Of a DNA stretch of 64,000 nucleotides, positions 4,765 through 48,508 are shown in pieces (position 1 is the first letter of the stretch; the number at the start of each line of letters is the position of its first letter). A program made the position numbers and the translations under genes. The stretch is from a bacterium (GTDB taxonomy: Bacteria; Patescibacteriota; Dojkabacteria; SC72; WJKH01), in assembly GCA_029547225.1 (NCBI GenBank), contig JAKPPS010000032.1, positions 4,065 to 68,064 of the forward strand, in the 5' to 3' direction. The notes below the pieces were generated by a model. The model was not told the DNA's origin, ran no database searches, and saw only the letters and a program-made list of their open reading frames with translations.

Positions 4765-4842
4765 GTAACCAACCGCTGTACAGAGCAAGTCAATCATTCC
4801 ATTACAAACCGAGAGCTATACTGATAAAATTGCTCATTCACG
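4765..4842 (+). repeat. Dispersed intergenic repeat of about 83 nt, copy A
   Basis: gtaaCCAACCGCTGTACAg...CCATTACAAACC...ttgctcattCACg begins 21 nt after the mfd stop. It aligns with copies B, C and D by eye. Confidence 0.7.
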
Positions 4843-5171
4843 TAGGACATATTTGAGCGTAAGAATTTTTTGATATTTCGGAAAGAAATAGAAAATATTT
4901 CAAGTAAACCTGTACGCCCAAAAGCCCGTTATACCAAGGTATAGTTTAACCCTAGAGTGTGTGGTTTTTATCTAATAAATGTAGATAGGTTTTCATCTAG
5001 ATTAGAGAAAAATATGATCGTCAAAATCCCTATTTATAAAAGTTTTTATTAATGTCGATAATTTTCTTGCAAAGAGTAACTTAAAACTCCATACTTTCGT
5101 CTAGAGTTCTTCAATATATGGATACCTCAAATAGAGTTTGCATTTAATTTATAAATTGTACATACTAGATT

Positions 5172-7067
5172 ATGGCTCATGCATTATACCGAAAATATAG
5201 ATCGCAAACATTTGATGAACTCATAGGGCAGGAGCATATTACAAATATCCTCAAGAATGCAGTCAAATCTCAAAATATCGCGCATGCATATCTTTTTGTA
5301 GGTTCCCGAGGTACAGGAAAGACAAGTACAGCAAGGATTTTAGCCAAAGCAATTAACTGTCAAGATATCCAAAAGGATGGTAATCCATGTAATAAATGCG
5401 AACATTGTACCGAAATAACTAATGGGAATTATCTGGACCTTATCGAGATCGACGCAGCGTCTAATCGTGGTATTGACCAGATCCGTGAATTGAAGGAGAA
5501 GATGGAGTTCAGTCCGGTTGAGGGTAAGTTTAAAATTTATATCATCGATGAAGTCCATATGCTTACCAATGAGGCTTTTAACGCGCTTCTCAAGACGTTA
5601 GAAGAACCACCAGAGCATGTGATTTTTATACTTGCTACAACAGAAGCACATAAATTACCTCCAACTATTGTTTCAAGATGTCAGAGGTATGATTTCAGAC
5701 TTGGTAGTAATGAAGAGATAGAGGATGTGATAAAAAAGAGTTCAAAAGAAGAGGGGATTAAAATATCCGATGGGGCATTAAAACTCTTGGTCGAAAGTGC
5801 TCGAGGAAGTTATCGAGATGCTTTATCTATACTTGATGTTGTGATAAGTGGACAGATCGGCAGCGCCAATCCACAAGAGATAAGTGAAGAAGAAGTCCGG
5901 CGAATACTTGGTATCCCTGATTCGACTATGGTCTATTATTTTCTTGAGAGCCTTGTTTATGGTAACCGAACTTCAGCCTTAAACCTAATACAAGAGATAG
6001 AGAGTAAAGGTGTAAATCTACAGCAGTTTACTAAACAAACCCTGGTAATGCTCAGGGAGATACTAGTTGCAAAACTTATTGGTAATTTTTCAGAAATGGA
6101 ATACTCTTTTGCAAAGGATCTGACTCCTAAAGATATTGTTGATATGATAAATATTTTTATTAATGTTGAAAGAAGCATAAAAAGTTTTTCGATACCTGCC
6201 TTAGTACTCGAGATGGTTATACCACAAATCTTTTTTGAAGGTATTACAAATAATAATCATGATAATTGCGATAGTCCGAAGTCAAAATCAGGCAATAAAG
6301 AGAAAAAAGGACAAAATCAAGATTTAAGCACAAATCAAAATAAGGCTTCAAGCAGCGAAGGTGATAAAAAGTTAGATAAGAGTGATACTAAAGTTATTCA
6401 TGCCGAAGCATCTGATGATAGTGAAAAATCAAGCATAAAAAGCGATAATAAAAAAGCTAATAAAACAGAGAAGAACCAGGAATCTGTTCAATCAGCAGTA
6501 AGTACAGAAAAAATTGCGATTGATGGGAAAGTGTCAGATGGAACAAATGAAGAACACTCAAATAAAAAATCAAAAAAAATCTCAATCAGTCTTGAAGACA
6601 TAATCGCAAAATGGAAAGAGGTTACCAATACAATTAAAGCAGCTAATGGGCATCTTTTTGCATTCTTAGAGATGGCAAAATTAGTTTCTTTTGAAGGCGG
6701 AAAGCTTACCATGGAAGTACCTTATGATTTCCATAAGGAGCGTATCGAGTGTCTCAAAAGTCGAGAGGCTATTCTTGAGGTTTTTCAAAATATTTATGGT
6801 GTAACATTCCCATACGAATGTATCGTTAATACCAGTATCAAACCAGAGTTTGTGTTTCACGAAGATGTTGTCGTGGAACAATCAGTGAAAAAAAGTTCCA
6901 CGGATGATAATAAGACTGCTAATACGCCTAATAATGGCAATGGGGGTTCTCAGTATAATAATAATAAATATGGTAATGGCGGTAATTATAACAGCAACAA
7001 TGGTGGTGGTAAATCGTACGGTGGTAGTAATCGTAAACAGATTGAAGAGATTTTTGCAGGTCTCTAG
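5172..7067 (+). CDS. dnaX: DNA polymerase III subunit gamma/tau
   Basis: It has Walker A 'GSRGTGKTSTARILAKAINC', a zinc module 'CNKCEHC', 'IYIIDEVHMLT' and 'SRCQRYDF'. The linker is long and Lys/Ser/Asn-rich, and the tail is Asn/Gly-rich. Confidence 0.9.
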   Translation: MAHALYRKYRSQTFDELIGQEHITNILKNAVKSQNIAHAYLFVGSRGTGKTSTARILAKAINCQDIQKDGNPCNKCEHCTEITNGNYLDLIEIDAASNRGIDQIRELKEKMEFSPVEGKFKIYIIDEVHMLTNEAFNALLKTLEEPPEHVIFILATTEAHKLPPTIVSRCQRYDFRLGSNEEIEDVIKKSSKEEGIKISDGALKLLVESARGSYRDALSILDVVISGQIGSANPQEISEEEVRRILGIPDSTMVYYFLESLVYGNRTSALNLIQEIESKGVNLQQFTKQTLVMLREILVAKLIGNFSEMEYSFAKDLTPKDIVDMINIFINVERSIKSFSIPALVLEMVIPQIFFEGITNNNHDNCDSPKSKSGNKEKKGQNQDLSTNQNKASSSEGDKKLDKSDTKVIHAEASDDSEKSSIKSDNKKANKTEKNQESVQSAVSTEKIAIDGKVSDGTNEEHSNKKSKKISISLEDIIAKWKEVTNTIKAANGHLFAFLEMAKLVSFEGGKLTMEVPYDFHKERIECLKSREAILEVFQNIYGVTFPYECIVNTSIKPEFVFHEDVVVEQSVKKSSTDDNKTANTPNNGNGGSQYNNNKYGNGGNYNSNNGGGKSYGGSNRKQIEEIFAGL

Positions 7068-7138
7068 AATCCTTAATATATCCCAATTTGAATATTTCAA
7101 ATATCAGTGAATTGTAAAGTGCTTGATTCTCATTACTT

Positions 7139-7221
7139 ATGTGTTTGGGATAATTATATGTAATAAGATAGGGTAGTCATGGGTAAAGTATATTGTAACG
7201 CAAAGTGGTTGGTGGCATACC
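7139..7221 (-). repeat. Dispersed intergenic repeat of about 83 nt, copy F (GGTATGCC subfamily)
   Basis: The minus strand reads GGTATGCCACCAACCactttgcgttacaa...CCATGACTACCC..., which is near-identical in layout to copy G. Confidence 0.7.
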
Positions 7222-7360
7222 ATTAAGTTATCGTAAAAAGCAGAAAATGATTCTTGATATAAGGTGATATCATATTTTACTTTTGGAGGCTTAGTTTTGG
7301 TTCTTCATTTTTATAAGATTTTAGGCTATAATCGACAAGTTAATATTAGTAATAATAAAT

Positions 7361-14483: not shown

Positions 14484-14539
14484 AGAAGATTTAATAAAAT
14501 TAAATAATCATCATTAACACATCTAGTATTTAATAGTAG

Positions 14540-14622
14540 GGTATGCCACCAACCTTTTCGCGTTCCAACTATGTCTTTCCATGACTACCCAATCTTTATC
14601 TGTACTATTATCGTTTGTACAA
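14540..14622 (+). repeat. Dispersed intergenic repeat of about 83 nt, copy G (GGTATGCC subfamily)
   Basis: GGTATGCCACCAACCttttcgcgttccaa...CCATGACTACCC...atcgtttgtacaa lies between the murA stop and the murD start. Confidence 0.7.
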
Positions 14623-14685
14623 CTAATCTTGTCAAAGAGATAGTTACCATTAACTAACCATATACTCTCTTTAATAAGTTTTCTT

Positions 14686-15978: not shown

Positions 15979-16126
15979 GAATAGAAAATGTGTTAAAATT
16001 TAATTAACTGAACATATCTTCTTCTGATATGTGTCTGTCATTATAGCATAAATAAGAAAAATAAAGTCATGTCGCATCATACTTTATGCTTATAATCTTT
16101 CTGGTGCATTATATAAATATATTTTT

Positions 16127-16207
16127 GTAACCATGCTCTGCCATTCTGCCTGAGCCGACACCATTACAAACCATTATCATTGCATAATAAAGACCGTTTT
16201 CACTTTT
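16127..16207 (+). repeat. Dispersed intergenic repeat of about 83 nt, copy B
   Basis: gtaaccatgctctgcc...CCGACACCATTACAAACC...gaCCGTTTTCACtttt lies in the divergent murA/cysS spacer. It shares a 15-nt identity (CCGACACCATTACAA) with copy D. Confidence 0.7.
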
Positions 16208-16316
16208 CAGTAGAAAGACTCGTCATCGAAAATAATTATACTTACTATCCATAAATCAACGTAAATATGATAATATTATCTGTAATCAATTCGTAATAAT
16301 TTTATTTTTATAATAT

Positions 16317-17894: not shown

Positions 17895-18995
17895 ATGGAA
17901 GTAAAAACAATTAAAGTCGATAATTTAGAATTATTAAAGGACAAAATTGCACAAGAACTTGTACAACAACCTGTCACCGACAAATATATGTGTTGGCGGT
18001 ATAAGAATTCACAGATAAGTGTAGTAGCTTATACTTCAGGCAAAGTTGTATTTAGCGGAAATGGTGATATTAATAAATATTTATTACATTGGGGTGTACT
18101 AAACTCCTCTGACATTGAAGATGTACGAACCGAGGACAGTGAAAAGAATTTGCACAGTAATTCTAAAAGTGCCGACGGTTTAAAAATAACTGACAACAAG
18201 GGAAAATTCGATAACACTATCTCGTATAGGGATGGGGCTTTTGTCGATATTGGTTCAGATGAGGCGGGTAAGGGAGAGTACTGGGGGCCTTTATGTGTCA
18301 GCGCAGTATATCTTGAAAATGGGAATATCGCTCAGATAAATAAACTAAAAGAATTGGGCGTAAAGGATTCAAAAAAACTTAGTGATATACAGGTAATCAA
18401 GTTAGCAAGCCAGATAAAGAAAGTGGTTAAGTATGAACTGATAGTTTTGGCATTAAGAGATTTCAATAAAGAGATGGAACTTAAGAAAAATATATCGATA
18501 ATAATGGGGGATTTACATGCTAAAGCGATAAATAACATCATAGCCGAATTAAATGAAGCTAGTGTACAGAAATCTAAAAGCAAGTCTTGTAAATATGAAG
18601 AATTAGACATTGTTGTAGATAAATTCTCTTCGGTATCAAATAGGATTGACGGGAAGCTGATTCCATATACCCCCGGGGGTATATCCAGCACCAAAGTAAA
18701 AGGTGATGCTTCTCATAGTAAAGTGAATCTTCATCAGATAGAGAAGGGGGAACAGTATTTGGCTGTCGCTTGTGCATCAATTATTGCACGACAGGCATAT
18801 CTTGAAAATATCGAAAAGCTTTCAAAGAAATACGATTTTATCTTCCCAAAAGGGTACACGAACATCGAGAAAACTATCATCGATTTTGTAGAATTACATG
18901 GAGAAGATGCTTTATATGATGTTGCTAAGGTCTCCTTTAAGACTACAAAAAGGGCTTTACCAAACTTTCGATACAATATGATAGAACAGAAATAG
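17895..18995 (+). CDS. rnhC: Ribonuclease HIII
   Basis: It has the N-terminal RNase HIII-specific domain ('YTSGKVVFSGNG'), the catalytic motif 'GSDEAGKGEYWGPLCVSAV' and 'VACASIIAR'. Confidence 0.8.
   Translation: MEVKTIKVDNLELLKDKIAQELVQQPVTDKYMCWRYKNSQISVVAYTSGKVVFSGNGDINKYLLHWGVLNSSDIEDVRTEDSEKNLHSNSKSADGLKITDNKGKFDNTISYRDGAFVDIGSDEAGKGEYWGPLCVSAVYLENGNIAQINKLKELGVKDSKKLSDIQVIKLASQIKKVVKYELIVLALRDFNKEMELKKNISIIMGDLHAKAINNIIAELNEASVQKSKSKSCKYEELDIVVDKFSSVSNRIDGKLIPYTPGGISSTKVKGDASHSKVNLHQIEKGEQYLAVACASIIARQAYLENIEKLSKKYDFIFPKGYTNIEKTIIDFVELHGEDALYDVAKVSFKTTKRALPNFRYNMIEQK
18665..18684. repeat. 20-bp palindrome ATATACCCCCGGGGGTATAT (site 1, inside rnhC)
   Basis: It is a perfect 20-nt palindrome in the ATATAC-N8-GTATAT format. 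It is read in frame as Y-T-P-G-G-I-S. Confidence 0.9.
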
Positions 18996-28468: not shown

Positions 28469-28516
28469 GTTTTTGCTTTAATTAGTAATGTTATTTTTTC
28501 CCATAAATATATTTAT

Positions 28517-28599
28517 ATAACCGACCGTTTTACAGCCAAATTTCCCATCACCATTACAATCCGTGCGCTACTTTTCAGAATTGTCGCTTTACACTTTTA
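28517..28599 (+). repeat. Dispersed intergenic repeat of about 83 nt, copy C
   Basis: ataaCCGACCGTTTTACAg...TCACCATTACAATCC...ttGTCGCTTTACACtttta begins 49 nt after the pflA stop. Confidence 0.75.
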
Positions 28600-28638
28600 C
28601 TCTAAGGATTATCTCAAATAGTAGGAATCTTATCTTTT

Positions 28639-28720
28639 CTGTTGTGATAGCCTTATTTTGTTAGAAAGCTCAAGGTTTGTAATGGTAAAGAGGTTTTTAA
28701 GCAGGGAAAGCATGGTTATA
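28639..28720 (-). repeat. Dispersed intergenic repeat of about 83 nt, copy E (inverted partner of C)
   Basis: The minus strand reads ataaccatgctttccctg...TACCATTACAAACC...ggctatcacaacag. It resembles copy B and lies tail-to-tail with copy C, 39 nt apart. Confidence 0.7.
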
Positions 28721-28857
28721 TAATTCATTTTTTATTCATATATATTTAATAGCTATGTTTTAACATTAAGTAATAAATTTAATGTCGGACAGAAATAACT
28801 AATTCCGTAAATCAAAATCGCTCAAATAGATTATATCGCTACGATAATCTTGAAAAT

Positions 28858-35029: not shown

Positions 35030-35240
35030 AAAGATAATTGAAAGAGTATTTGCTCAAGTCAAGCTTGAAAAAACACCAAAATACATTGACAAACGCTGAA
35101 CATATATCACTTAAAACTATCAATGAAAATTAGCCTCTAAATCAACATCAATTTATTTACATAGCTTTACATATTTGCCCTTTGCCAAGCAGATAAAAAA
35201 CTGGTAAGATAAATGTGAACTAATATAACTGCCTAAGTAA

Positions 35241-36728
35241 GTGAAAGTCCAATTCTGTGGAGCCGCAAAAACTGTTACTGGATCGTGTTTTTATCTCGAG
35301 ACAGGTAAATATAAAGTCCTTGTTGATTGTGGGATGTTTCAAGGTGATCCAGAGCTCGAAAAGCTAAATAAAGAACCGTTTCCTTTTGACCCCTCAGCAA
35401 TAGATTATGTTTTCTTGACACATGCACATTATGATCATTGTGGTAGATTACCTTTACTTGTAAAACAAGGCTTTAAAGGTGAGATCATTTCTACTCAACC
35501 AACTCGTGATTTAACACAATTAGTTTTATTAGATTCGGCAAAAGTACAAGAAGAGGATTATCGCAGATCAGTTGGTCGAGAGGGTTTTGAGGCGTATTTG
35601 CACAAAAAAGATAGCGAGAATGTAAAAGTATATAATGGTCAAATAAAAGATAGTCTTTACGGTGATGCGACATCATCAGATGATAACGCCGAATACCCGC
35701 TTTTTAATGAGGGAGATGTGTATGAAACAATGAAATATTTCAGGATTTATGAGTATGGAGATTCTGTTGTTTTGCGAGATGGTTTGGAATTCAGGATGCG
35801 TGATGCAGGACATATTTTAGGTTCAGTTACTTTCGAATTATGGATTCAAAACGGAGATGGAAAACAGAGAAAGCTTGTATTCTCGGGAGATCTTGGACAG
35901 CCTGGGCAAAGAATTATTCGTGACCCTGATATGATCCGCGATGCTGACTTCGTTTTTGTCGAATCAACATATGGTGATAGGATACATAAAAGTAAAGATG
36001 AGACGGTTTTGGAATTTCTTACAATACTTAAAGAAGCTGAAAAAATTAATGGAAATGTATTGATACCGATTTTTGCAATAGAAAGAACTCAAGAGATTAT
36101 TTATGAGCTAAATCTTTTTTATGAATCAAAATTGGTTACCGATATACCTGTTTATCTTGATAGTCCTATGGCTTCTGATGCTACAGAAATATTTAAACGT
36201 TATCCTGCTTTTTATGATGAAGACGCCAAGAGATTATTGGAAAAGGGAGATGACCCTTTCAATTTTAAAGGCTTGAAGTTTGTAAAAAGTGTTGATGAGT
36301 CGAATCGAATTAGCAATCAGAAAAAATCCATAATCATGGCGGGTAGTGGTATGTGTACTGGAGGTAGGATTTTGAATCACCTTATTAACAATCTTGCAAA
36401 ACAATCAACGAGTATTATTTTTGTAGGGTATCAGGTAAGAGGTACATTGGGTCGTCGAATATTAGACGGCCAGAAATCAGTAAGGATAAGAGGTCGTGAA
36501 GTTGAATCGAATGCCCAGTTGCATACTCTTGGTGGTTTTTCTGCACATGCTGACGAACGAGATTTAATGTATTGGTTAAGAGGTTTTGGACATACTCCAA
36601 GGATGATTTTTATATGTCATGGTGATGAAGATATTGCTACAAGTTTTTCTGATAAAGTGAAAACAGATCTTATGATTGACACGCATGTTCCTTCGATGTT
36701 TGAAACTGTGGATTTAGAGAAATATTAG
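35241..36728 (+). CDS. MBL-fold beta-CASP ribonuclease (RNase J/CPSF-like)
   Basis: GTG start. It has 'MKVQFCGAAKTVTGSC', 'THAHYDHCGRLP' (HxHxDH) and, later, 'GGFSAHAD' typical of beta-CASP. Confidence 0.8.
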   Translation: MKVQFCGAAKTVTGSCFYLETGKYKVLVDCGMFQGDPELEKLNKEPFPFDPSAIDYVFLTHAHYDHCGRLPLLVKQGFKGEIISTQPTRDLTQLVLLDSAKVQEEDYRRSVGREGFEAYLHKKDSENVKVYNGQIKDSLYGDATSSDDNAEYPLFNEGDVYETMKYFRIYEYGDSVVLRDGLEFRMRDAGHILGSVTFELWIQNGDGKQRKLVFSGDLGQPGQRIIRDPDMIRDADFVFVESTYGDRIHKSKDETVLEFLTILKEAEKINGNVLIPIFAIERTQEIIYELNLFYESKLVTDIPVYLDSPMASDATEIFKRYPAFYDEDAKRLLEKGDDPFNFKGLKFVKSVDESNRISNQKKSIIMAGSGMCTGGRILNHLINNLAKQSTSIIFVGYQVRGTLGRRILDGQKSVRIRGREVESNAQLHTLGGFSAHADERDLMYWLRGFGHTPRMIFICHGDEDIATSFSDKVKTDLMIDTHVPSMFETVDLEKY

Positions 36729-36852
36729 TTTTGAAAGATAATCTGGCTTTTGGCCTTACGACAGTTTTGAAGAAACCATATCTAATTATTGATCGAGGGA
36801 GATATAGAGGAAAATAGATTAGTAAATATTTTATTTTTTATTAGTGCGAAAA

Positions 36853-39153
36853 ATGGATAATAATAATTATGGACCGATTAAGAGCTTTTCTCAAAGTCAG
36901 GTACCAACAAACTCGGGAAATAAAATTGGTGACAGTGGCAATATTGGTAACGGCTCAGGAAATTGGGGCACTAATGATGATAGTTTCTCTTCAAGCTCGA
37001 ATCCAATATCTAATCAGATTTCCAATGCTCAACAAACTGATGATGCTACTTCTCAGATAGACGAAGATGAAATTTCAAGTATCAATCAAATTTCTGGAAC
37101 AACTGATAGTTCGCTGGATATTAATAGCCTTGATCCGCTAAATGATGATCCAACCAATACACAATATTCTTCTTTGAATAAAACAGATGATGAGAAATTT
37201 GATGCGCTTATCCAGCATTATAATTCAAAAATTAAGGAGCTAGAGCAGAGTGATAGAAAGGATTTAGAGAATAAAGGATTTGGGGATTATCCTCAGCATG
37301 AACAATTAGAAAAAGCCGAAGATTTTAAAACCTCAGGAGATTTGCTTGAAGAAAGTTTGACCGGATCTGATGTGCACTCAAGTTATGACAAATTATTTGA
37401 TGATGCAGGTCAGCCTATTTCTGTGATTGCTAAAGATATAATCGTAGATCAAGTAATTGATGAGCCAGATCAAACGCACTCGACTGGCACAAATATTTCT
37501 TTTTCAAGCGATAATGATTCTGAGCAAACGCACTCAGCTGGCATAAATATTTCTTCTTCAAACGATAATGATATGGGTCCTGATTTGATCTCTTCTGATA
37601 TTTATTCTGGTGGCATTGTTAATAAAGATATCATTTCCTCTGATGCAAATTATGACAGCACAAATGATATTGCCACAGATAAGAGCAATTCTGACGATGA
37701 AGAAAATCTTAGAATACTACAGGAGTTTAAACAATATGAGGATCAAGTTCTTCAAGAAATAAATAGAAAAATGGGTATAAAATCAACGACAGATTTAAGC
37801 AAATATTCAGATTTAGGTTATCGCGGTGATGCTCAATCTGACAATACAAATGTTGTAGAATCTCCAAATATTGATTTCAGTGCAAAGGATATACTTTCAG
37901 CAAATAGAACTCTCGATACAAACGCTGATGTCATTGATTCTTCAATGCAAATTAATACGTCCAATATATCCGAAGGACCAAGCGTTATTTCTAGCAAAAA
38001 GACAGTAGTTGATCCGACTGATTACAATAAGTTAGATTTTTCTCATGGGAGTGGTTCGATGATGCACGATGATTCTTCATTATCCAATTATGTAAATATT
38101 GACGATATAATTAATGATATTAAAAGTATTAAAATCCAAGGTGCAACAAATGTCGCTATCGCTACATTTATGGGGTTGAAGCTTTTTGTAAATCAGTATG
38201 ATAGAGAGGTGCCTTTGGAAGTTTTTATCTCTGATGTGCAAAAGGCAGGTATTTCACTTGCTAATGCTCGACCAAATGAACCTTTAGCAAAAAATGGCGT
38301 CAAATTTATAATAAATAAATTGAATCGTGAAACTGGATTAATAAATGGTATTGATCCTTTGCCTCAAGATTCAAACGAGATATTTAATAAAGTCTCTGAG
38401 ATTATTCAAAATACAGATGATTTATCGCAAAATTCGCTGTACCAAAGTTCAAGCGATGAAATATATCATGTCAAAGACCTAATATCTGCTAAGAAAAGAG
38501 TCCTCGAATTATGTGAAGATTATATTACTCACATTAAGAATGCAAAACAAAAAATAATTGAATATGCAAGTCCAGTATTAAAAAATATAAAATCAATATT
38601 GACCCATTGCCATTCTTCTACTTCGGAGAAGATTATTATCAATCAAAGTAAAAACATCGCTGGTTTCAAGGTTGCCTGTACTGAGACTCGACCACTATTT
38701 CAAGGACGAATCACAGCAAAGAATCTCGCTGATGCGGGACTCGATGTAACATTCTTAACTGATAGTGCTGCTCCTGGATTTATTGCTGGTAAAGGCTCTT
38801 TCCCGATAGACGCAGTATTTATCGGGGCTGATCAGATGACAATCAATGGTGATGCGATTAATAAAGTCGGAAGTTGGTCAATAGCATCTGCAGCAATAGC
38901 GGCTGGTAAACCGGTATATATCGTAACATCTATACTTAAACTTGATTTAACTACTGCTTACAAGCCAGTCGAGATAGAGATGAGAAGCGGTAAAGAGATT
39001 TGGGAAGAAGCTCCAGATGGTGTTACTGTTTACAATCCATCCTTTGAACTTATCGAGAGTAAATACATTACTGGATACTTGACGGAAATAGGAGTTATCT
39101 CACCAAGTGAATTAACTCATTCTGCTCAAAAAACTTACTATTGGTTGACTTAA
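36853..39153 (+). CDS. eIF-2B alpha/beta/delta family protein (ribose-1,5-bisphosphate isomerase-like) with a disordered N-terminal extension of about 415 aa
   Basis: The C-terminal ~350 aa carry 'IKIQGATNVAIA', 'THCHSSTSE' and 'GADQMTINGDAINKVGSW'. The N-terminal part is rich in Ser, Asp and Asn. I prefer the ATG at 36853 over the GTG at 36844. Confidence 0.7.
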   Translation: MDNNNYGPIKSFSQSQVPTNSGNKIGDSGNIGNGSGNWGTNDDSFSSSSNPISNQISNAQQTDDATSQIDEDEISSINQISGTTDSSLDINSLDPLNDDPTNTQYSSLNKTDDEKFDALIQHYNSKIKELEQSDRKDLENKGFGDYPQHEQLEKAEDFKTSGDLLEESLTGSDVHSSYDKLFDDAGQPISVIAKDIIVDQVIDEPDQTHSTGTNISFSSDNDSEQTHSAGINISSSNDNDMGPDLISSDIYSGGIVNKDIISSDANYDSTNDIATDKSNSDDEENLRILQEFKQYEDQVLQEINRKMGIKSTTDLSKYSDLGYRGDAQSDNTNVVESPNIDFSAKDILSANRTLDTNADVIDSSMQINTSNISEGPSVISSKKTVVDPTDYNKLDFSHGSGSMMHDDSSLSNYVNIDDIINDIKSIKIQGATNVAIATFMGLKLFVNQYDREVPLEVFISDVQKAGISLANARPNEPLAKNGVKFIINKLNRETGLINGIDPLPQDSNEIFNKVSEIIQNTDDLSQNSLYQSSSDEIYHVKDLISAKKRVLELCEDYITHIKNAKQKIIEYASPVLKNIKSILTHCHSSTSEKIIINQSKNIAGFKVACTETRPLFQGRITAKNLADAGLDVTFLTDSAAPGFIAGKGSFPIDAVFIGADQMTINGDAINKVGSWSIASAAIAAGKPVYIVTSILKLDLTTAYKPVEIEMRSGKEIWEEAPDGVTVYNPSFELIESKYITGYLTEIGVISPSELTHSAQKTYYWLT
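37471..37578 (+). repeat. Tandem 2 x 54-nt in-frame repeat within the N-terminal extension
   Basis: caaacgcactcgactggcacaaatatttc... is repeated as caaacgcactcagctggcataaatatttc.... It encodes QTHSTGTNISFSSDNDSE / QTHSAGINISSSNDNDMG. Confidence 0.8.
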
Positions 39154-39326
39154 AGATTGAAAATTTCTAAGTATTAGACAACTAGGTAATTTGACAATCT
39201 GAATAAATAGATCGAAATTGATGATTGTAGTTTGCGAAAACCACAGGGAAAATAATAATAAAAATACGAAATGTCTGAAAAGCTCGGATAAATATTATAT
39301 TAATTAATATGTTAAATTTTTTTAGA

Positions 39327-40838
39327 ATGGCATTATACGTAAAAACCAAAAAACTTGATTTCAAAACTGGGGATCCACTTGTTGTACTTTTGCACAGAGC
39401 AGATGCAGAGGAATTAGGAGTAAAAGAAGGACAGAAGGTGATATTCAACTGGCGCGATTTAGAGCTCTATGTTGTAATCAATCTTACAGATACTGAAGTG
39501 AGTAGGGGCGAAGTTGGCTTATATTTTGAGATATGGGAATCTAATGATATCCCTAATAATGAAATGGCCTCAATAAATCTTTTAGAGCGTCCAGATTCAA
39601 TAGAATACATCAAAAGTAAAATACTTGGGCAGCGCTTAAGTCGCGAACAGATCTACGAAATAATGCAAGATATTTCAGATCGTAAAATCCGTGAAGTCGA
39701 AATAGCATATTTTATGGCATGTTTTTTTAACCCTGGTTTTGATGATGAAGAGGTAAGGGATATTGCAGTCGGTATGGCACGAGCTGGAGATATTATTGAT
39801 TTTACAAATATTAATGGTAATGGAAAGCTAGTAGTAGATAAACATTCTATTGGGGGTATTGCTGGCAAAGGTGTCACACCAATATTGGTACCAATTATTG
39901 CAAGTGAGAATCTGATTATCCCAAATACTTCTACTAGGGCTATAACAACACCAGCTGGCACTTCAGATATATTAGAAGTTGTAATGCCAGTATCCTTTAC
40001 TCCTGAAACAGTTAAAGAAGTTGTTAAGAAAACAAATGCTTGTATGGTGTGGGGTGGTTCTATGAAATTAGCTCCAGCTGATGATGTCCTTATATCAGTA
40101 GAAAAAGAATTACATGCTCAAGCATATGGTAAGCTGATTGCAAGTATAGTTGCCAAGAAAATCTCAATGGGCATTACAGATATTGTCGTAGATATACCAT
40201 ATGGAAAGAGTGCGAAGGTAAAAACTCCTGAAGAAGCAGAAATGCTAGGTAGGAAGCTAAAAAAGACATTTCTATCTGTCGGGATAAACTGTGAAACTTT
40301 CCTAAGGTTTGTTACAAGTCCAGATGGGCGAGGTATCGGTCCTGTGTTAGAAATGCGGGATATTCTGAGAGTACTTGAGAGAGATTCTCAAAGGCCTTTA
40401 ACATTGGAGAAGACCGCAGTTGAGATGGCAGGAGTTCTTTTAGAAATGGCTGGCAAGGCTACCAAAGGTAAGGGGCGTGAACTTGCTCAAAAGAAATTAG
40501 ATAATGGTGATGCATTAAAGAAATTCTGGGAGATTGCCACAACTCAAGGCGCAGCGAGTCCGATTGATTCTATAAATCTTGTGCCTGGCGACTATACTCA
40601 TCCTGTCACAATAAACAAAACAGGTAGTATCCGTTTTATCGACAATCACGAGATAGTAAAAATCTGTCGAGCACTTGGTAATCCAACTATCAGAAATGCT
40701 GGTATTTATTTCAAGAGATTTATTGGAGAGAGTGTCAAGGAGGGAGATGTTGTCATGATGATGTATGCGAGTTCTCCAGAACGCTTAGAAATGGGTATTT
40801 CTGAAGTTGATATCAATAAACTATTCGAGATAGTGTAG
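39327..40838 (+). CDS. AMP phosphorylase-like (thymidine phosphorylase family, archaeal type)
   Basis: The N-terminal extra domain 'LYVKTKKLDFKTGDPLVVLLHRADAEELGVKEGQKV' is typical of AMP phosphorylases. 'DKHSIGGIAGKGVTPILVPI' matches the family phosphate-binding motif. The start could also be 39309. Confidence 0.75.
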   Translation: MALYVKTKKLDFKTGDPLVVLLHRADAEELGVKEGQKVIFNWRDLELYVVINLTDTEVSRGEVGLYFEIWESNDIPNNEMASINLLERPDSIEYIKSKILGQRLSREQIYEIMQDISDRKIREVEIAYFMACFFNPGFDDEEVRDIAVGMARAGDIIDFTNINGNGKLVVDKHSIGGIAGKGVTPILVPIIASENLIIPNTSTRAITTPAGTSDILEVVMPVSFTPETVKEVVKKTNACMVWGGSMKLAPADDVLISVEKELHAQAYGKLIASIVAKKISMGITDIVVDIPYGKSAKVKTPEEAEMLGRKLKKTFLSVGINCETFLRFVTSPDGRGIGPVLEMRDILRVLERDSQRPLTLEKTAVEMAGVLLEMAGKATKGKGRELAQKKLDNGDALKKFWEIATTQGAASPIDSINLVPGDYTHPVTINKTGSIRFIDNHEIVKICRALGNPTIRNAGIYFKRFIGESVKEGDVVMMMYASSPERLEMGISEVDINKLFEIV

Positions 40839-40930: not shown

Positions 40931-43105
40931 CTAGTTTTCAGATTTTGTTTCAAGTTTCTTGCTAGTGTCCTTTTCTATATCTTTTCCTGTATTATCGTTA
41001 GAAGTAGTATTTGCCATTAATCTCTTCTTATTGTACTTTCTTATTTGTGATGCAATCAGTGTGATAATAACGATAAAGATTACCAGGGTAACACAAACTG
41101 GAAGTACCACAATAGCAGTTTTACCAAGAGGATTAGTTTTTATCATAAAATCAAGTTTGTCTTGCTCCTGTATTATTTGCAAATCAGAAATAGTTGCAAT
41201 TTGATCAACTGTTTTTAAAGAACCAATTTCCGAAAATTGACTTGCAGGCACGGGATATATAATTATGTGGTAATTATCATAAGCGTTTTCGGCAGTAATA
41301 TTTGCAGAATAAACCATCGCATCAATTGGAGAAGTACTAATACTACTTGATGTATACCAAAGCACATGTTCAAGATCTGGTCCGATATATATTCTTTTTG
41401 TTTCTCCCCATGTCGGATCTACAGTCATCCACCCATAATCTGGAAACCAAACTTGTACCCATTGATGACCCTTACTTTTTTGATTTAGGTCTTCATTATT
41501 ACTCTCAACGGTCTTATTTTCATCACTCTCGTTTGAATTAGTGTTGTTCGTTGTGTCAGAGAGTGTAGCTTCATTTTTTTGTAGAAATTCGGTTTTACTA
41601 ACATCTGTTTGCTGTGTTGAATTGTATACTTCGTTATCAAGAAGGGGATCGTTGCCATACCCAAAAGCAGGTCGTGCAGGTATGCCTTGAGCTCTAAGTA
41701 AGGTGATAAGGCTATCTGAATACTCCATACAGACTGTAGCTTCACCTTCAAGTGCTCGTAAGGCTCCAATGCGTTGATTGAATTGTGAAACCTTATCATA
41801 ACTATAATCAAATTCTTCAACTAAATAATTATAATCAGATATCAATATGTCGTAGATTTTCTCTTTATCCGCCTTCAGAGAATTGGCTAATTGAATAATT
41901 TCTGGATCGGTTGTTTGCCAATATGTATCGGATTCCAAAAACTTAGATAATGTTTGGTTGGATCTGATATCACTTGCAAGATCAGTTAATGTGACCTCAG
42001 TAGTGCTTTTAGTCTCTTGAGTATCTGAAGCTTCTTCGTTTGTACTTGTGGCTTCTTCCTGAATATCCTTATGAATGCTTTGTTTTACATAACCTTCTAT
42101 TGTTATTGTGCTCTCTTTGTTAGCGGGTACCTCCCAGCGTCCGATCAAGTTCCCTTCATCATCATGATATAAAAGTTTGGGCTCGGGAGAAATAGATTTA
42201 ATATATATTTCTTGATTGGTTTCCTCAAATTCTCTTGGAAGAATAATCTCGTAAACATTTGTTGAGAGTAATGGTGAAATATTGCTAATAGATTCAGGTA
42301 TTAAATTATCAGATATTGGTGCTTTTTGTTCTATCTTAAAGTAGGTGTATTGTTCCGTACCAATCTGAACCCAACCCATATTATTCTTAATTGTCTGGTG
42401 ATCAAGAGTGTAAATTCGATGGCCATTTTCAGTGTTTATCTGGATTGAGCTTGGAGAATAATATGAGTGCATTGACTCATTTTCAGGTACTAAAATCTTT
42501 TGAGTATAATTATAGTTTGTTTTGAGACCATTTCCATCAGTTTTACTATCTTCAAGTGTCGGCATTTGTGGGGTATAAATATTGCTTATATTTCCATTAA
42601 TATCTATGAACTGGTGAGATTTGTATCGGATTTCTGCTTCAAAGGGATTATAATTATCAATATTGTAATCCTGTGGAATTAATACTTTTATACCCTGTGG
42701 GGTATTCTCAACTTGATAGGAATTATTTATTTGACCATTAACATACACTTGTAACGAATCCCTGGAAAATGCCATTTCTGAATCGAATAATTCATTCTGA
42801 TATTCAGATGAGATCGGAGTGATATACATTTCTTGCATATACCCAGCAGGGTATAAGTATAATGATGTATTAACTTGTAAGCGGAGTCTTTCCTTTACTT
42901 CAACGTAATCTTGGTTTGGTTGATAATAAATTTCTAGGATGTGGTTGGTCTCGAAATCTGGATCGGAAGCATGAGTATTGGTATTTAGTAGTGCTATATC
43001 TGCAAAGAAAAGTGTTATTATCATTAAAATCGCGAACACTTTTTGTATAAAAGGGGAAATTGTTTTTAAAAGTGCGTTAGTGTTCAGAAATAGATTTTGT
43101 AGCAT
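40931..43105 (-). CDS. Large transglutaminase-like envelope protein with N- and C-terminal TM segments
   Basis: It has the transglutaminase core Cys 'ATVCMEYSDSLITLLRAQGIPAR', His 'KGHQWVQVWF' and Asp 'MTVDPTW'. The C-terminal TM is 'AIVVLPVCVTLVIFIVIITLIA'. Confidence 0.75.
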   Translation of the reverse strand: MLQNLFLNTNALLKTISPFIQKVFAILMIITLFFADIALLNTNTHASDPDFETNHILEIYYQPNQDYVEVKERLRLQVNTSLYLYPAGYMQEMYITPISSEYQNELFDSEMAFSRDSLQVYVNGQINNSYQVENTPQGIKVLIPQDYNIDNYNPFEAEIRYKSHQFIDINGNISNIYTPQMPTLEDSKTDGNGLKTNYNYTQKILVPENESMHSYYSPSSIQINTENGHRIYTLDHQTIKNNMGWVQIGTEQYTYFKIEQKAPISDNLIPESISNISPLLSTNVYEIILPREFEETNQEIYIKSISPEPKLLYHDDEGNLIGRWEVPANKESTITIEGYVKQSIHKDIQEEATSTNEEASDTQETKSTTEVTLTDLASDIRSNQTLSKFLESDTYWQTTDPEIIQLANSLKADKEKIYDILISDYNYLVEEFDYSYDKVSQFNQRIGALRALEGEATVCMEYSDSLITLLRAQGIPARPAFGYGNDPLLDNEVYNSTQQTDVSKTEFLQKNEATLSDTTNNTNSNESDENKTVESNNEDLNQKSKGHQWVQVWFPDYGWMTVDPTWGETKRIYIGPDLEHVLWYTSSSISTSPIDAMVYSANITAENAYDNYHIIIYPVPASQFSEIGSLKTVDQIATISDLQIIQEQDKLDFMIKTNPLGKTAIVVLPVCVTLVIFIVIITLIASQIRKYNKKRLMANTTSNDNTGKDIEKDTSKKLETKSEN
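42688..42707. repeat. Near-consensus 20-bp palindrome TTATACCCTGTGGGGTATTC (site 4)
   Basis: It has the 20-nt frame TTATAC-N8-GTATTC with a CCC..GGGG core. It encodes N-T-P-Q-G-I-K on the minus strand. Confidence 0.55.
42837..42856. repeat. Near-consensus 20-bp palindrome ATATACCCAGCAGGGTATAA (site 5)
   Basis: It has the frame ATATAC-N8-GTATAA with 7-bp perfect arms TATACCC/GGGTATA. It encodes Y-L-Y-P-A-G-Y-M on the minus strand. Confidence 0.65.
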
Positions 43106-44324: not shown

Positions 44325-44443
44325 TATCATCGATCAAATACTCATCTTAACTGTTATTTTTTATATCCATGCAAATGTCGCATGCGACCTCTTTCCATCA
44401 CTATCCATGGGTATATTTTCAGAGATAGCTTATGTATGGGATC

Positions 44444-44526
44444 GTGCAAGCGGTACTTTTGAAAGATTGAGCTTGGGTAGTCATGGTGAGCACTATTATG
44501 TATTGTACAGCGGTTGGTGGCATACC
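44444..44526 (-). repeat. Dispersed intergenic repeat of about 83 nt, copy H (GGTATGCC subfamily)
   Basis: The minus strand reads GGTATGCCACCAACCGCTGTACAA...CACCATGACTACCCAAGCTCA...taCCGCTTGCACg. It bridges both subfamilies. Confidence 0.75.
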
Positions 44527-44568
44527 TAGAAAATTGTAAATCAATTGGATAATTCAGTTAATTGTATA

Positions 44569-45595: not shown

Positions 45596-45612
45596 TTTGA
45601 GTTTAGTTTATT

Positions 45613-45921
45613 ATGGTACAAGATGTAAAAGATCCATTGAAAGAAGTTTTTGATGAATCATCATTCGATGACAATGAGAGAGGTAAAAAGGGACGAAGAA
45701 AGAAAGTTCATCTTGATTTGAAATGTCCTTTATGTGAGTCGGGTGTCAAATATGTTACTTACAAAGATGTTTATCAGTTAAAGAAATTTACTTCGGTAAG
45801 AGGTAAGATAATCTCTACTGAGAAATCTGGAGTTTGTGCAAAACATCAAAGACAACTTGCGAAATCTATCAAAAGAGCGAGATATATTGGTTTGATGCCT
45901 TATGTCGCATTAGATGCGTAA
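45613..45921 (+). CDS. rpsR: 30S ribosomal protein S18
   Basis: It has 'CPLCESGVKYVTYKDVYQLKKFTSVRGKIISTEKSGVCAKHQRQLAKSIKRARYIGLMPY'. Confidence 0.9.
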   Translation: MVQDVKDPLKEVFDESSFDDNERGKKGRRKKVHLDLKCPLCESGVKYVTYKDVYQLKKFTSVRGKIISTEKSGVCAKHQRQLAKSIKRARYIGLMPYVALDA

Positions 45922-45959
45922 TCGCAATTTTGAATTCATTTGAGTTTTTACCGCTGATT

Positions 45960-45991
45960 AACTCCCGTTTATACGGGAGTTTTTCTTTTTT
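45960..45991 (+). terminator. Rho-independent terminator after rpsR
   Basis: Stem AACTCCCG / CGGGAGTT with loop TTTATA, followed by TTTTTCTTTTTT. Confidence 0.8.
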
Positions 45992-46070
45992 ATCGTTCTT
46001 TATTACGTATTGGATTGTGCTTTATACTTCAATGTTGCCTAGATGTAAAATAAAGTGATATACTAATTCA

Positions 46071-47390
46071 GTGGAAAAACTGCCTTTACTCGAAAAAAAT
46101 GCATATTTGAAAATCCGCATAAAAAAGGATAATGCCGTTGCTCATCTTGCTTATTCTCATTATGATGTCGGAAGAAGTTACATACTCAAAGATATCACAA
46201 GTGGTTTGAATCCTGAAATGATCGGTGAATATCTAGCTACATTACAGAGTGAGTTTGATTGGGAAATTTTTCATTTGGTTGATAGTGCAAATTTCATACT
46301 AGATTTTTCTGATGAAGGAATTGGTATTTCTGGCATTACTATTATTTTAGATGATACAACTTATGTTAAAGCAATAAGAGATTTTTGTCCTGAGATTAAG
46401 ATCGAAATAAATAGTAAGAAGCTTGTAAGTGATCGTATGACAGCTTTCTGCCGTAAACTAGGTTATAAAGATCTCTTGTTTATAGACTCTGATATCCTTT
46501 CTACTACGATAACAAGGGCAAGATATGCTCTTGAGGATTCATTAAAAAATAATTATTCTGTGCAAGATGCTTACATTTCTGATAACGATATTGATGTTCT
46601 TGCGAGTTCGATATTATCGGCTCAATTACAGGCTTTTATGACAGATAATGCAACTATCTATGCCCTTGCAAATCGTTGGGTAAACTATGTGTATACTGGC
46701 ATTGAAGAAACTGAAGATAACTGCTTACTCGATATTCTGCGTGCTCAAAAAACTCGGCAGTTGTTATCTTTAAGTCTTGCTAACAAAGAATTACTCAAAG
46801 ATTTCGGTAAACAGAGTAGAGCCCAGAAAAATTTACAGGGTATAGCTATCATTTTTACAGGTAGTATGGCTCGAGTGATTAATGAAAAATCGATAATTGT
46901 TTCACTAATTGATGGACTTCAGTTGAGTGGTCATTTTGACCTATATGTAGATAAAAACAATTTCTTTGATACCATGGTGAGTAGTTATTTGGATGGTATA
47001 AATGCAAGCGACATTATTCTTTCAAGGAAAGATGTTTTAGAAGATCCAATAAAAGTAATTCTACCTGAGATACAAAAGGATAAAAGTGTGAGAAAAGTTG
47101 TAATGGATGGAAATGTTATTAGTCAAGAGCGAGGCGAAGTGAGAATATATGCATTAGCTCCGAATATCACGCTTATCGATACGCCGAATGAAAAAGCCTT
47201 TGTGAGTATGAAACTTTCTCGCGGAGCTTATCTCAAGGGATATGGTGAAGAACTTGAGTTTTCATCTGATCCATTGTCGACAAAATATTCCAAGATAATT
47301 GTAGATTGTCGCTATAAACCAATAATATATGGCCCCGATAGGTCGATAAATAAAAATAATTTTGATTTATGGTTTAATGAACAGGATTAA
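46071..47390 (+). CDS. Hypothetical protein (439 aa)
   Basis: It is a long ORF with a GTG start and no recognisable motif. It overlaps the next gene by 14 nt, which suggests translational coupling. Confidence 0.6.
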   Translation: MEKLPLLEKNAYLKIRIKKDNAVAHLAYSHYDVGRSYILKDITSGLNPEMIGEYLATLQSEFDWEIFHLVDSANFILDFSDEGIGISGITIILDDTTYVKAIRDFCPEIKIEINSKKLVSDRMTAFCRKLGYKDLLFIDSDILSTTITRARYALEDSLKNNYSVQDAYISDNDIDVLASSILSAQLQAFMTDNATIYALANRWVNYVYTGIEETEDNCLLDILRAQKTRQLLSLSLANKELLKDFGKQSRAQKNLQGIAIIFTGSMARVINEKSIIVSLIDGLQLSGHFDLYVDKNNFFDTMVSSYLDGINASDIILSRKDVLEDPIKVILPEIQKDKSVRKVVMDGNVISQERGEVRIYALAPNITLIDTPNEKAFVSMKLSRGAYLKGYGEELEFSSDPLSTKYSKIIVDCRYKPIIYGPDRSINKNNFDLWFNEQD

Positions 47391-48429
47391 AAGATTTGTT
47401 AAAAAACAGTTTCAAACTCTAGCTTACATACCTTTTAATGGTAAACCAGAACTTTTAGTCGAAGTTGGTTCAAAAGTTAATGCGGGTGATGTTTTGTTTT
47501 ATTCAGTCGGAAAATCAATTGCCGAATCACACGATCTTGTTAGTGAAATAGGGATAAGTGTATCTCAAGCTCAAACTGCTTGTACTAGGTTAAAAGGTGA
47601 GTATGTAGTAGCTGGTGATATTATTGCTGAATCTCCTGCGAAATCAGGTTTGGTTTTAAAAAGAATAGTTGCTGGCACAGAAGGTGTGATTAACTATGAT
47701 AATATCGATAGGGGTATTGTAAATATCCTTTCAGAAATGACTCAGATTGATGTAAAGTCGTATTTCAGTGGTGTAGTTAATCGGATTGATCTTAAAGATG
47801 GAATTTTTATTGATATTTACGCATCTGAGGTAGATTGCTTTGCGTCTGTTACTAATCCAAATCCTCAACTTTTCCCGATAGAGATATTAAAGGACGGTAA
47901 GTCAGTTTTTGTTGAGAAAGATCTTGAAATGAATTATACAGGCAAGTATGTTTTTGCGGGGAGATATGTTTATGGTGCTCTGATCCAAAAAATCCTTGAT
48001 CGAGGTGCAAAAGGTGTTATCGTATATGCTATGGATTATTATGATTACGAATCTTTGAGCCAAGAGATAATTAAGAATAAAAGCCAAAGTTTGATAGTGC
48101 TTGGTGGTTTTGGTCAAATACCTTGGAATAATTGCATCGAGGAATTCCTAAATCTTGTAAAAAATCAGCAGATCCGCGTAGAGAATATAGAGGGAACAGG
48201 AAAAAATCGAATTATTATTACTCAGCCGTCTCTACAGCCAACAAATGTTTCAAATTATAATCAGGTAAAAGTTGGCAATAAAGTTTGGATAGGTACGGGC
48301 GAATTATGGGGCAGTGTAGGGGTTGTTGATGCGTTTGATCAGAGTAATGAATACTGTTTTGTGATCACCGATGGAGGTCAAAAGAGTTTAATTGCAAAAA
48401 GAAATCTTATGCTTGTTAATGATTTATAA
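47377..48429 (+). CDS. Hypothetical protein with barrel-sandwich (lipoyl/HlyD-like) segments
   Basis: 'LLVEVGSKVNAGDVLF' and 'LKGEYVVAGDIIAE' look like hybrid-barrel motifs. I prefer the ATG at 47377 over the TTG at 47362. Confidence 0.55.
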   Translation: MNRIKRFVKKQFQTLAYIPFNGKPELLVEVGSKVNAGDVLFYSVGKSIAESHDLVSEIGISVSQAQTACTRLKGEYVVAGDIIAESPAKSGLVLKRIVAGTEGVINYDNIDRGIVNILSEMTQIDVKSYFSGVVNRIDLKDGIFIDIYASEVDCFASVTNPNPQLFPIEILKDGKSVFVEKDLEMNYTGKYVFAGRYVYGALIQKILDRGAKGVIVYAMDYYDYESLSQEIIKNKSQSLIVLGGFGQIPWNNCIEEFLNLVKNQQIRVENIEGTGKNRIIITQPSLQPTNVSNYNQVKVGNKVWIGTGELWGSVGVVDAFDQSNEYCFVITDGGQKSLIAKRNLMLVNDL

Positions 48430-48508
48430 CCAACCGTTGTACAAATATCATTCCCGACACCATTACAATCCAAGCTCATGTTTTCACAATGTTCGTTTTA
48501 CACTTTTA
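48426..48508 (+). repeat. Dispersed intergenic repeat of about 83 nt, copy D
   Basis: ataaCCAACCGTTGTACAa...CCGACACCATTACAATCCAAGCTCA...tGTTCGTTTTACACtttt. Its first bases overlap the TAA stop at 48427..48429. Confidence 0.75.

Follow-up and report, generated by a model that had tools for sequence, protein, structure and literature searches.

Intergenic repeats of REP/BIME-like character in a Candidatus Dojkabacteria lineage

What are the short sequences that recur between the genes of an uncultured bacterium with a small genome? In a 64-kb stretch of DNA from a member of Candidatus Dojkabacteria (CPR/Patescibacteria), the whole of which we call the window, an original prediction had listed eight dispersed noncoding repeats; CPR/Patescibacteria, whose genomes are very small, are generally considered to contain few repeats and little mobile DNA. 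Judged by its sequence, the repeat appears to be a previously undescribed family of ~90-nt intergenic elements resembling REP/BIME of E. coli, and we give roughly even odds (about 0.5) to the reading that the copies are lineage-restricted extragenic repeats of the REP/BIME/REPIN kind with a retained function. The eight listed copies are real: each was recovered by leave-one-out profile search with E between 4e-10 and 5e-6, and a degenerate pattern built from the two best blocks matches seven of the eight and nothing in 100 shuffles. The three shared blocks and two subfamilies that had been described also hold, the latter corresponding to subtype T1 (copies A, B, C, D and E) and subtype T2 (F, G and H). 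The profile stretches every listed copy to ~95 nt, and with a degenerate ninth copy there are nine in the window and 10 in 84 kb; two proposed fragments, at 4906 to 4935 and 62291 to 62309, did not come up with 70-copy profiles, even with the threshold relaxed to E <= 5. Overall we found 70 distinct copies (35 T1 and 35 T2), ~60 of them outside the window. By ORF-based calls none lies inside a confidently called gene and two overlap short or doubtful ORFs, and the window copies are intergenic, as claimed. Outside their motifs the window copies have diverged to saturation (44-72% identity), with the motifs retained.

For each copy we give the G-rich, hairpin-forming strand, which is the complement of the orientation originally assigned. 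Copy A (4756 to 4850, minus strand) is a T1 singlet (nhmmer E 6e-18, leave-one-out E 4e-10) whose outer end lies 12 nt past the mfd stop codon and whose inner end is 322 nt from the dnaX start. Copy F (7131 to 7225, plus; nhmmer E 2e-20) is a T2 singlet that stands between dnaX and ybaB, on the upstream side of a conserved promoter-like sequence belonging to ybaB itself. These two copies document gain or loss, as L094, a 78%-identity relative, retains an orthologous copy A and is missing copy F from the orthologous spacer. Copy G (14536 to 14630, minus; nhmmer E 3.5e-24), a T2 singlet between an EPSP-synthase-family (murA-like) gene and murD, has orthologs u6 and u9 in strains L060 and L075. 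Copy B (16118 to 16212, minus; nhmmer E 6e-19) is a T1 singlet with the murA-like gene on one side and cysS on the other, and in strain L075 a 318-aa ORF, a putative murB, ends 12 nt from its outer end. Copies C (28508 to 28602, minus; nhmmer E 2.5e-18) and E (28634 to 28728, plus; nhmmer E 4e-14), both T1, are the left and right halves of a head-to-head doublet whose fold is a hairpin, long but imperfect (z = -2.5). Copy H (44435 to 44530, plus; nhmmer E 1e-16), in the ychF-rpsF spacer, joins a T2 stem to the TGTACAGCGGTTGG loop of A and D and so bridges the subfamilies as had been proposed. Back to back with H stands the ninth copy (44353 to 44434, minus), degenerate, T1-like and absent from the original list, with nhmmer E of 0.004-0.1 in all leave-one-out runs and 0.005-0.036 with 70-copy profiles. 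It forms the left half of a decayed doublet with H, and this 150-nt unit is 72-73% alike in two other genomes, L032 and L038. Copy D (48417 to 48511, minus; nhmmer E 8e-14), a T1 singlet, overlaps the upstream gene as described, its outer end covering the last codons and stop of the 47362-48429 ORF (distance -12).

Each ~90-nt module combines a 5' GTG and a GGTAAT-like block with a helix formed by the G-rich strand, and GG-rich motifs (ATGG, GGTTGG or GCATGG) lie on either side of the helix; the T2 core reads GGGTAGTCATGG...GGTTGGTGGCATACC. That no strong internal hairpin was to be seen is true of the C-rich strand, the one that had been read, where folding gave no consensus pairs and z-scores near 0, but not of its complement: only the G-rich strand folds, into a conserved helix with G·U pairs. 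Its arms are GTAAT/GTTAY in T1 and GGGTAGTCAT/GTGGCATACC in T2, and a stem of 5-10 bp closes a loop of fixed length (24 nt in seven of the eight listed window copies). The five core pairs are ~99% paired across 64 distinct copies (171 cells are G·U and no more than 3 are unpaired), compared with 31-50% pairing at slid positions and with 500 shuffles, none of which reaches the observed pairing. A single A-U to C-G swap in the helix distinguishes T1 from T2, and covariation amounts essentially to this one compensatory event, the remaining changes being wobble. Several further features were considered and rejected. An extra 5' helix between the GTG and the GG block has copy-specific pairings only, and RNAalifold finds none; a second internal hairpin, P2 (UUG-GAACG-CAA), is present in most T2 but is not general in T1, and is replaced by other small hairpins in H, u22, u30 and u32. 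A small peptide, suggested by the many T1 copies readable as ATG-GTG...GTT-ATA-TAA (13 codons), is ruled out by early stops in A, u10, u63 and most T2, by frame-shifting indels and by the absence of a ribosome-binding site. CsrA-type GGA pairs, C/D-box-like AUGGUGA, a two-tetrad G-quadruplex in T2 and sigma54/ECF promoter motifs, all inspected by eye, are not conserved family-wide.

Orthologous copies indicate how these parts evolve. Across 15 orthologous pairs from close strains, motif columns changed in 3 of 486 cases and other columns in 62 of 711 (Fisher p = 1.6e-11), i.e. changes are 14 times rarer in the family-wide motifs than elsewhere in the element, while the variable columns (8.7%) and the flanks (~12%) change at about equal rates. 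The motifs are under purifying selection at each locus, so the family probably has a function, and selection in place speaks against a MITE that is purely selfish and decaying.

The neighbourhood of the copies is less regular. They occupy tandem, convergent and divergent spacers in both orientations, and because all three spacer types are occupied the elements do not act as promoters, as terminators or as gene leaders. Copies face a gene end in 39 cases and a gene start in 27, and 17 outer ends are no more than 27 nt from a stop codon. The rule that copies A, C and D lie sense, and F, G and H antisense, to the upstream gene holds inside the window but not in other carrier genomes, where four T2 singlets in co-directional spacers are reversed relative to it and doublets put either subtype beside a gene end; the rule was a small-sample effect. 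Replication-strand polarity of the KOPS kind was also rejected, as copies point both ways on one replichore (window GC skew is positive throughout).

These observations bear on several other accounts of the family. It is conceivable, though we think it unlikely, that the modules are RNA elements, either sRNA genes or cis-acting, made from the G-rich strand, with a conserved protein-binding scaffold (hairpin and GG motifs) and a freely varying part, a doublet then being two divergent genes that share an AT-rich centre. Folding of the G-rich strand only, a helix rich in G·U and motifs selected in place would all suit such elements, and indifference to neighbouring genes is what independent genes should show; copy G even carries over its 5' part the best sigma70-like match in 20 kb, TTGACA-17-GATAAT. 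Yet an unsystematic survey by eye found no consistent promoter-like hexamers 5' of the other copies or in doublet centres, and the helix is followed by A-rich sequence (ATAAA or TTAAA) with no U-run, a terminator scan reporting no site at the elements. Many copies would, moreover, transcribe into a convergent gene 3' end within -12 to +27 nt, and the variable columns are not guides because they evolve about as fast as the flanks. The Rfam search proposed with the original list matched the elements to no family: at gathering thresholds the whole window yields two tRNAs only, and permissive E-value scans of the H region and five doublet loci return nothing at the elements.

Improbable, in our estimation, is that an architectural or topological protein binds the elements as double-stranded DNA, much as IHF and gyrase bind BIMEs, with the helix a by-product of two half-sites. 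Independence of orientation and context, strictly intergenic placement and blocks selected in place, which span ~85 bp with a constant 24-nt spacing in seven of the eight listed window copies, are in keeping with this idea; however, the subtype switch alters both arms complementarily, and the non-Watson-Crick cells are all G·U on one strand, which duplex binding does not need. The blocks are also without helical periodicity, and they show none of the replication-strand polarity looked for above.

How the copies multiplied is best seen outside the window. In other carrier genomes the unit is a head-to-head doublet of ~190 nt, usually T2/T1. We found 15 distinct head-to-head doublets; those at separate loci are 61-91% identical (mean 75%) across the full unit, with similarity that breaks off abruptly at TATGGTATGCC at one end and at GGTTATATAA at the opposite end. 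The head-to-head doublet is the unit that multiplied; a singlet, the commonest form in this window, is half of such a unit. Its two halves are inverted and only ~55-60% alike (T1/T2), with termini that differ (GGCATACC versus GGTTATATAA), and because of this low match a long hairpin of the REPIN type is poor (z = -1.45 and +0.68 for the L045 doublet, and -2.5 for C/E). We deduce mobility from paralog similarity alone, because no filled/empty site pair with exact boundaries was found. An enzyme that could have moved the doublets was sought in several ways. IS200 TnpA and E. coli RAYT (YafM) queries gave no tblastn match in ~0.45 Mb of family-carrying loci, in a search that works, since it matches an unrelated cyanobacterial locus; Pfam, run on 40 proteins (30 encoded in the window and 10 flanking elements elsewhere), also detected no RAYT/Y1 transposase. 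No protein recurs across family loci in a multi-copy protein search, no locus has a transposase gene between T2 and T1 ends, and the genes beside the elements are ordinary cellular genes.

Inverted halves, sharp outer ends of similarity, paralogs up to 91% alike and the presence of F in the window and its absence in L094 might also suggest ordinary decaying MITEs, the doublet being a deletion derivative of a DDE-transposase IS with long imperfect terminal inverted repeats and no host function. We regard this as quite improbable. No direct repeat stands beside any of 18 doublets, although a 2-nt TA duplication would be undetectable in such AT-rich DNA; the ends are unequal, and neither a parent IS nor a transposase was found in the loci searched. 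Neutral decay predicts neither the 14-fold slower change of the motifs nor their survival in otherwise saturated copies. The same features separate the family from bacterial MITEs and mosaic repeats, namely Correia (Neisseria), RUP and BOX (Streptococcus pneumoniae) and ERIC/IRU (enterobacteria) elements, which are likewise non-coding, intergenic inverted-repeat units of 100-200 nt, present in dozens to hundreds of copies and variably present between relatives: in the Dojkabacteria family, unlike these, neither a TA nor any longer duplication was seen, the termini are not short, near-perfect repeats and no parent IS turned up in the loci searched, and it conserves its motifs in place while the rest of the copy is saturated.

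That the elements are promoters, leaders or terminators of the flanking genes is very improbable, even though in six of the 10 copies in the window's species the G-rich strand points towards a gene that starts 53-140 nt further on and 17 outer ends are close to stop codons, since copies of either orientation sit in spacers of all three kinds (divergent, convergent and tandem), only seven of the ~30 window spacers of at least 60 nt are occupied, a good sigma70-type promoter match occurs only in copy G, no U-run follows the helix, and dnaX and ybaB have their own conserved sigma70-like promoter-like sequences beside the start codon and apart from the elements, that of ybaB being equally conserved in L094 without copy F. 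For these reasons two of the originally suggested roles, a 3'-UTR module (divergent spacers and both orientations are also occupied) and operon punctuation as a general role, find no support. The suggested REP- or MITE-like role is the best supported, by copies that are dispersed, intergenic, independent of context, arranged in inverted doublets, limited to one lineage and, for F, absent in L094.

On the preferred reading, that of REP/BIME/REPIN-kind repeats, the doublets would spread through a trans-acting enzyme that recognises a single-stranded hairpin and flanking motifs. An HUH/RAYT-like route would fit the missing target-site duplication and the tolerated G·T wobble pairs. After this spread the copies would pass on vertically, their motifs being retained because a putative host protein still binds them, and they may protect transcript ends or insulate neighbouring transcription units, as proposed for REP/BIME. 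The family shares with the REP/BIME elements of enterobacteria and the REPIN-RAYT system of Pseudomonas a high copy number, an extragenic location and one hairpin per unit, and with both REP and REPIN the lack of target-site duplication, frequent proximity to stop codons and long vertical persistence. As Y and Z REPs pair inverted in BIMEs, so do T1 and T2 here; as in REPINs, where the doublet multiplies and singlets are remnants, we find 15 doublets and, in H, a copy with a decayed partner. The differences are also clear. A REP is a near-perfect palindrome of 20-40 nt, whereas the module here, at ~90 nt, is ~3 times longer, with a short stem around a 30-nt loop, and the REP 5' tetranucleotide (e.g. 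GTAG) is present in T2 (GGGTAGTCAT) but absent from T1. A RAYT (Y1/HUH transposase) gene is typically flanked by REP/REPIN repeats; in contrast to REPIN-RAYT, the family has doublet halves only ~55-60% alike, no RAYT gene found in the ~0.45 Mb of loci searched and a small-genome CPR host. Integron attC sites also combine a single-strand hairpin, conserved outer motifs and a variable centre just past stop codons, but they are co-oriented in an array beside an integrase, whereas the family copies are dispersed in both orientations with no integrase nearby.

No copy was found in 185,579 reference genomes: among the GTDB species representatives the scan returned just 22 isolated matches, in unrelated taxa, where ~17 were estimated by chance; one match in viral contigs was judged chance. 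True copies are found only in metagenome contigs, mostly from one anaerobic-digester sample series, which also yielded contigs of the window's species, plus one activated-sludge assembly. DnaX homologs assign the lineage to Dojkabacteria. Syntenic segments of 10-20 kb from each of the relatives at ~52-55% DnaX identity contain no copy. From these scans the family appears confined to one lineage, a subclade of Candidatus Dojkabacteria; our literature search found no paper on repeats in Dojkabacteria, nor on REPINs in Patescibacteria.

A bolder reading, which we consider doubtful, holds that the modules are non-selfish, selected hairpin-and-motif sites, ~100 per genome if a 1-Mb genome is assumed, bound as RNA or ssDNA by a putative CPR-lineage protein. 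If true, this would be a dedicated system that marks or protects the boundaries of transcripts or chromosomes; the one 20-kb scan showed few terminator-like sites where genes end. Because the motifs resist change at each locus while the remainder drifts, the family may offer a compact, sequence-defined handle on a putative nucleic-acid-binding function in an uncultured lineage, and it would add a test case to the debate over whether REP/REPIN elements are long-lived, vertically inherited host partners or short-lived parasites. Rearrangement breakpoints at element ends were considered and rejected: the window has lost the murB-like ORF, and L090, a contig at 1.7x coverage, has a foreign flank, but both changes lie near, not exactly at, the ends. 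In practical terms the family, which occupies ~1% of the window, is a diagnostic marker for this Dojkabacteria subclade and a possible cause of assembly breaks and rearrangements.

The eight intergenic repeats of about 90 nt (modules A to H, beginning at 4765, 16127, 28517, 48426, 28639, 7139, 14540 and 44444) belong to a new family with two subtypes, T1 (A to E) and T2 (F to H). Each omitted copy is recovered by a profile from the other seven (E = 4e-10 to 5e-6), with no other sequence in the window reaching a comparable score, and a degenerate pattern, GGNTWGTMATGG-N24-GSWYGGTKRYA, which joins the two strongest blocks, matches seven of the eight copies and has no match in 100 dinucleotide-preserving shuffles; the family is therefore real, and by the same E-values and shuffle control the similarity is more than low-complexity AT-rich resemblance. 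The three shared blocks of the original prediction are visible in an alignment of the eight stretches; at 44-72% pairwise identity the copies are much further apart than the doublets of other genomes described below, yet seven of the eight keep 24 nt from ATGG to the 3' block. Every copy sits between ORFs, as proposed, and copy D does overlap the stop codon of the ORF upstream. Profiles from 70 copies recover A to H plus a ninth, degenerate one that abuts H back to back at 44353-44434; two possible fragments of the original prediction, 4906-4935 and 62291-62309, are not recovered by these profiles even at E ≤ 5. The additional 10 kb on each side of the window contains one further T1 copy, between yebC and ruvC.

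Among one genome each of 185,579 species, the block pattern has only 22 single matches, all in unrelated taxa, which is chance level, as we estimate that about 17 would arise by chance; the one match in viral contigs is unsupported by the profiles. Metagenome contigs hold 65 loci with the pattern, mostly from the Ga01161xx, Ga0208940 and Ga0208459 sample series, ERZ795031 and one activated-sludge assembly, and a profile search over all loci gives 87 hits that correspond to 70 distinct copies (35 T1 and 35 T2). JGI sample 3300010345 and the assemblies ENA ERZ773283 and NCBI GCA_035424305.1 contain contigs that match the window exactly or almost exactly. The named DnaX homologs are from Candidatus Dojkabacteria (CPR/Patescibacteria), a lineage for which our literature search found no paper describing such repeats.

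Copies in the other genomes are usually head-to-head doublets, a minus-strand module followed directly by a plus-strand module, strands being named for the G-rich, folding sequence described below. The 5' GTG ends face each other, and the AT-rich centre between them varies in length. Most doublets combine a T2 with a T1. Doublets from different loci with unrelated neighbour genes are 61-91% identical (mean 75%) across the whole unit of ~190 nt, with TATGGTATGCC and GGTTATATAA marking where the similarity ends on the two sides. It was thus the doublet that multiplied as a unit. The doublets of the window are C/E and H with its decayed partner, all remaining copies being single modules (singlets). 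In a close strain, a low-coverage contig (929-1222 and 1345-2354, against window 28503-28632) has a 290-nt insert separating C and E, and past the outer end of C it carries unrelated DNA that by eye appears to contain a truncated 5' fragment of lysS; this arrangement reflects either rearrangement at the doublet or a chimeric assembly.

A relative with 78% identical DnaX has an ortholog of copy A in the same place, with the copy-specific loop sequence in common (E = 9e-16), and lacks copy F; relatives with ~52-55% DnaX identity keep the ybeY-pth-mfd-dnaX-ybaB-recR synteny and have no copy in 10-20 kb each. The family thus arose inside a subclade, and its copies can persist across species. Another close strain (97% identical) carries, between the murA-like gene and cysS (2226-3201 of its locus), a 318-aa ORF that we read as a putative murB; just about its first ten codons are left in the window (16070-16125), where it appears to have been deleted.

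The absence of a strong internal hairpin, as originally described, holds for the C-rich strand on which the copies had been written, which has no consensus fold, and fails for the complementary G-rich strand, which folds. On the latter, (T)TTGTAAT pairs with GTTAYAA(A) in A to E, and GGGTAGTCAT with GTGGCATACC(C) in F to H. Across 64 distinct copies, five core pairs are ~99% paired, one pair divides the copies into 33 with A-U and 31 with C-G, and the non-Watson-Crick cells comprise 171 G·U against at most three others. Pairing falls to 31-50% when the 3' partner is shifted by 1-3 columns, and none of 500 shuffles attains the observed pairing or covariation score. The A-U/C-G swap is the T1/T2 split, and this double change amounts essentially to one event in evolution. 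That the copies are RNA genes or RNA modules is a reading that such a helix invites and that we consider unlikely; Rfam gives no match to the elements at curated thresholds or permissive E-values.

Selection is evident at individual loci. In 15 copies that have an ortholog in a strain with 91-99% identity in the surrounding DNA, motif columns (conserved at least 85% family-wide) show 3 changes in 486 comparisons (0.6%), against 62 in 711 (8.7%) for the remaining element columns, which is close to the rate in the adjoining flanks (Fisher p = 1.6e-11). The genome is AT-rich and the motif columns G/C-rich, so mutation bias should act against their conservation. This pattern is not predicted by neutral decay of a dead mobile element: either something continues to read the motifs locus by locus, or homogenisation takes place among the copies. 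Elements serving simply as duplex protein-binding sites would be read in this way; we hold this to be somewhat less likely still than RNA modules.

No transposase is present among the 30 window proteins scanned, in agreement with the original prediction, and no candidate enzyme lies within 10 kb on each side. We found no target-site duplication in 18 doublets and no protein recurring at different loci; ten proteins sampled from element-bearing loci, seven of them immediate neighbours of an element, are of ordinary cellular kinds (UvrD helicase, YgjP-like peptidase, Hsp20, an HTH protein, type II/IV secretion ATPase, glycosyltransferases, a hydrolase, an MFS transporter and one without a match). 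Approximate IS200 TnpA and E. coli RAYT queries find no tblastn match in loci from family-carrying genomes, and the same search picks up an IS200-like gene in a control locus that is unrelated; this negative is weak, as the search was confined to individual loci. That the repeats are neutral DDE-type MITEs, short dispersed elements as they are, is improbable, as motif conservation at each locus is unlike neutral decay.

The closest known systems are REP/BIME of enterobacteria and REPIN doublets of Pseudomonas, which are likewise extragenic, with a hairpin in every unit, two subtypes in inverted pairing, the doublet as replicating unit, no duplication at the insertion site and long vertical persistence. 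The present family differs in its module of ~90 nt with a short stem round a large loop, in doublet halves that match poorly and in that a RAYT gene was not found; we therefore describe it as working like these systems and do not file it as a member. We give a probability of about 50% to a joint mechanism in which a trans-acting enzyme recognising the hairpin would spread doublets, the doublets would be inherited vertically and decay to singlets, and the motifs would be retained since they are bound by a host protein.

The family is independent of gene context. Its neighbours in the window are housekeeping genes (mfd, dnaX, ybaB, recR, mur ligases, the murA-like gene, cysS, pyruvate formate-lyase and its activase, rpsF, ssb, rpsR and proteases), and copies occupy tandem, convergent and divergent spacers. 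Outer ends point toward gene ends in 39 cases, 17 of them ≤27 nt from the stop codon, and toward gene starts in 27, none nearer than 24 nt. The proposed orientation rule (T1 sense, T2 antisense to the upstream gene) fits the six window copies cited for it and breaks down in other genomes, where four T2 singlets in co-directional spacers are oriented against it and either T1 or T2 of a doublet may adjoin a gene end. A copy is present in only 7 of the ~30 window spacers that reach 60 nt or more; long spacers with neither a family copy nor an Rfam match lie at 53839-54753 (915 nt), 62082-62636 (555), 35030-35333 (304) and 56645-56958 (314).

Comparison of the window with the relative whose DnaX is 78% identical reveals conserved sigma70-like promoter-like sequences and leaders beside the start codons of ybaB (GCTATAAT) and dnaX (TTGCAA-17-CATACT), outside the elements, and the one upstream of ybaB is equally conserved in this relative, where copy F is absent. 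An A-rich sequence, and no U-run, follows the helix, and a strong promoter-like match overlaps copy G alone. Given these promoter-like sequences, the missing U-run and the single promoter-like copy, we rejected the elements as promoters or terminators of their neighbours, and punctuation of this kind is very improbable. The TTGCAA-17-CATACT site stands 5' of a leader of ~70 nt directly before the dnaX start codon (window ~5100-5171) that is almost identical in the relative, the rest of the spacer being barely alignable; judged from sequence, this leader could be a cis-regulatory RNA, and it has no match in Rfam.

The window also contains a second repeat family, nine copies of the 18-nt palindrome TATACCCCnnGGGGTATA (18666-18683, 21271-21288, 27980-27997, 42838-42855, 51430-51447, 54315-54332, 55687-55704, 61519-61536 and 63239-63256), which we take to resemble CsoR operators. 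Eight of the nine are inside long ORFs (RNase HII, PFL activase, a transglutaminase-like protein, sortase, pseudouridine synthase and others); the only intergenic one, at 54315, lies shortly before a CsoR-family gene (PF02583, near 54370-54597). It is unexpected to see nine of these palindromes in 64 kb, most of them within genes. At 36844-40838, an IF-2B-family gene (PF01008) adjoins a thymidine-phosphorylase-family gene (PF02885/PF00591), a pair that may be ribose-1,5-bisphosphate isomerase and AMP phosphorylase, which form a nucleotide-salvage route reported in CPR bacteria.
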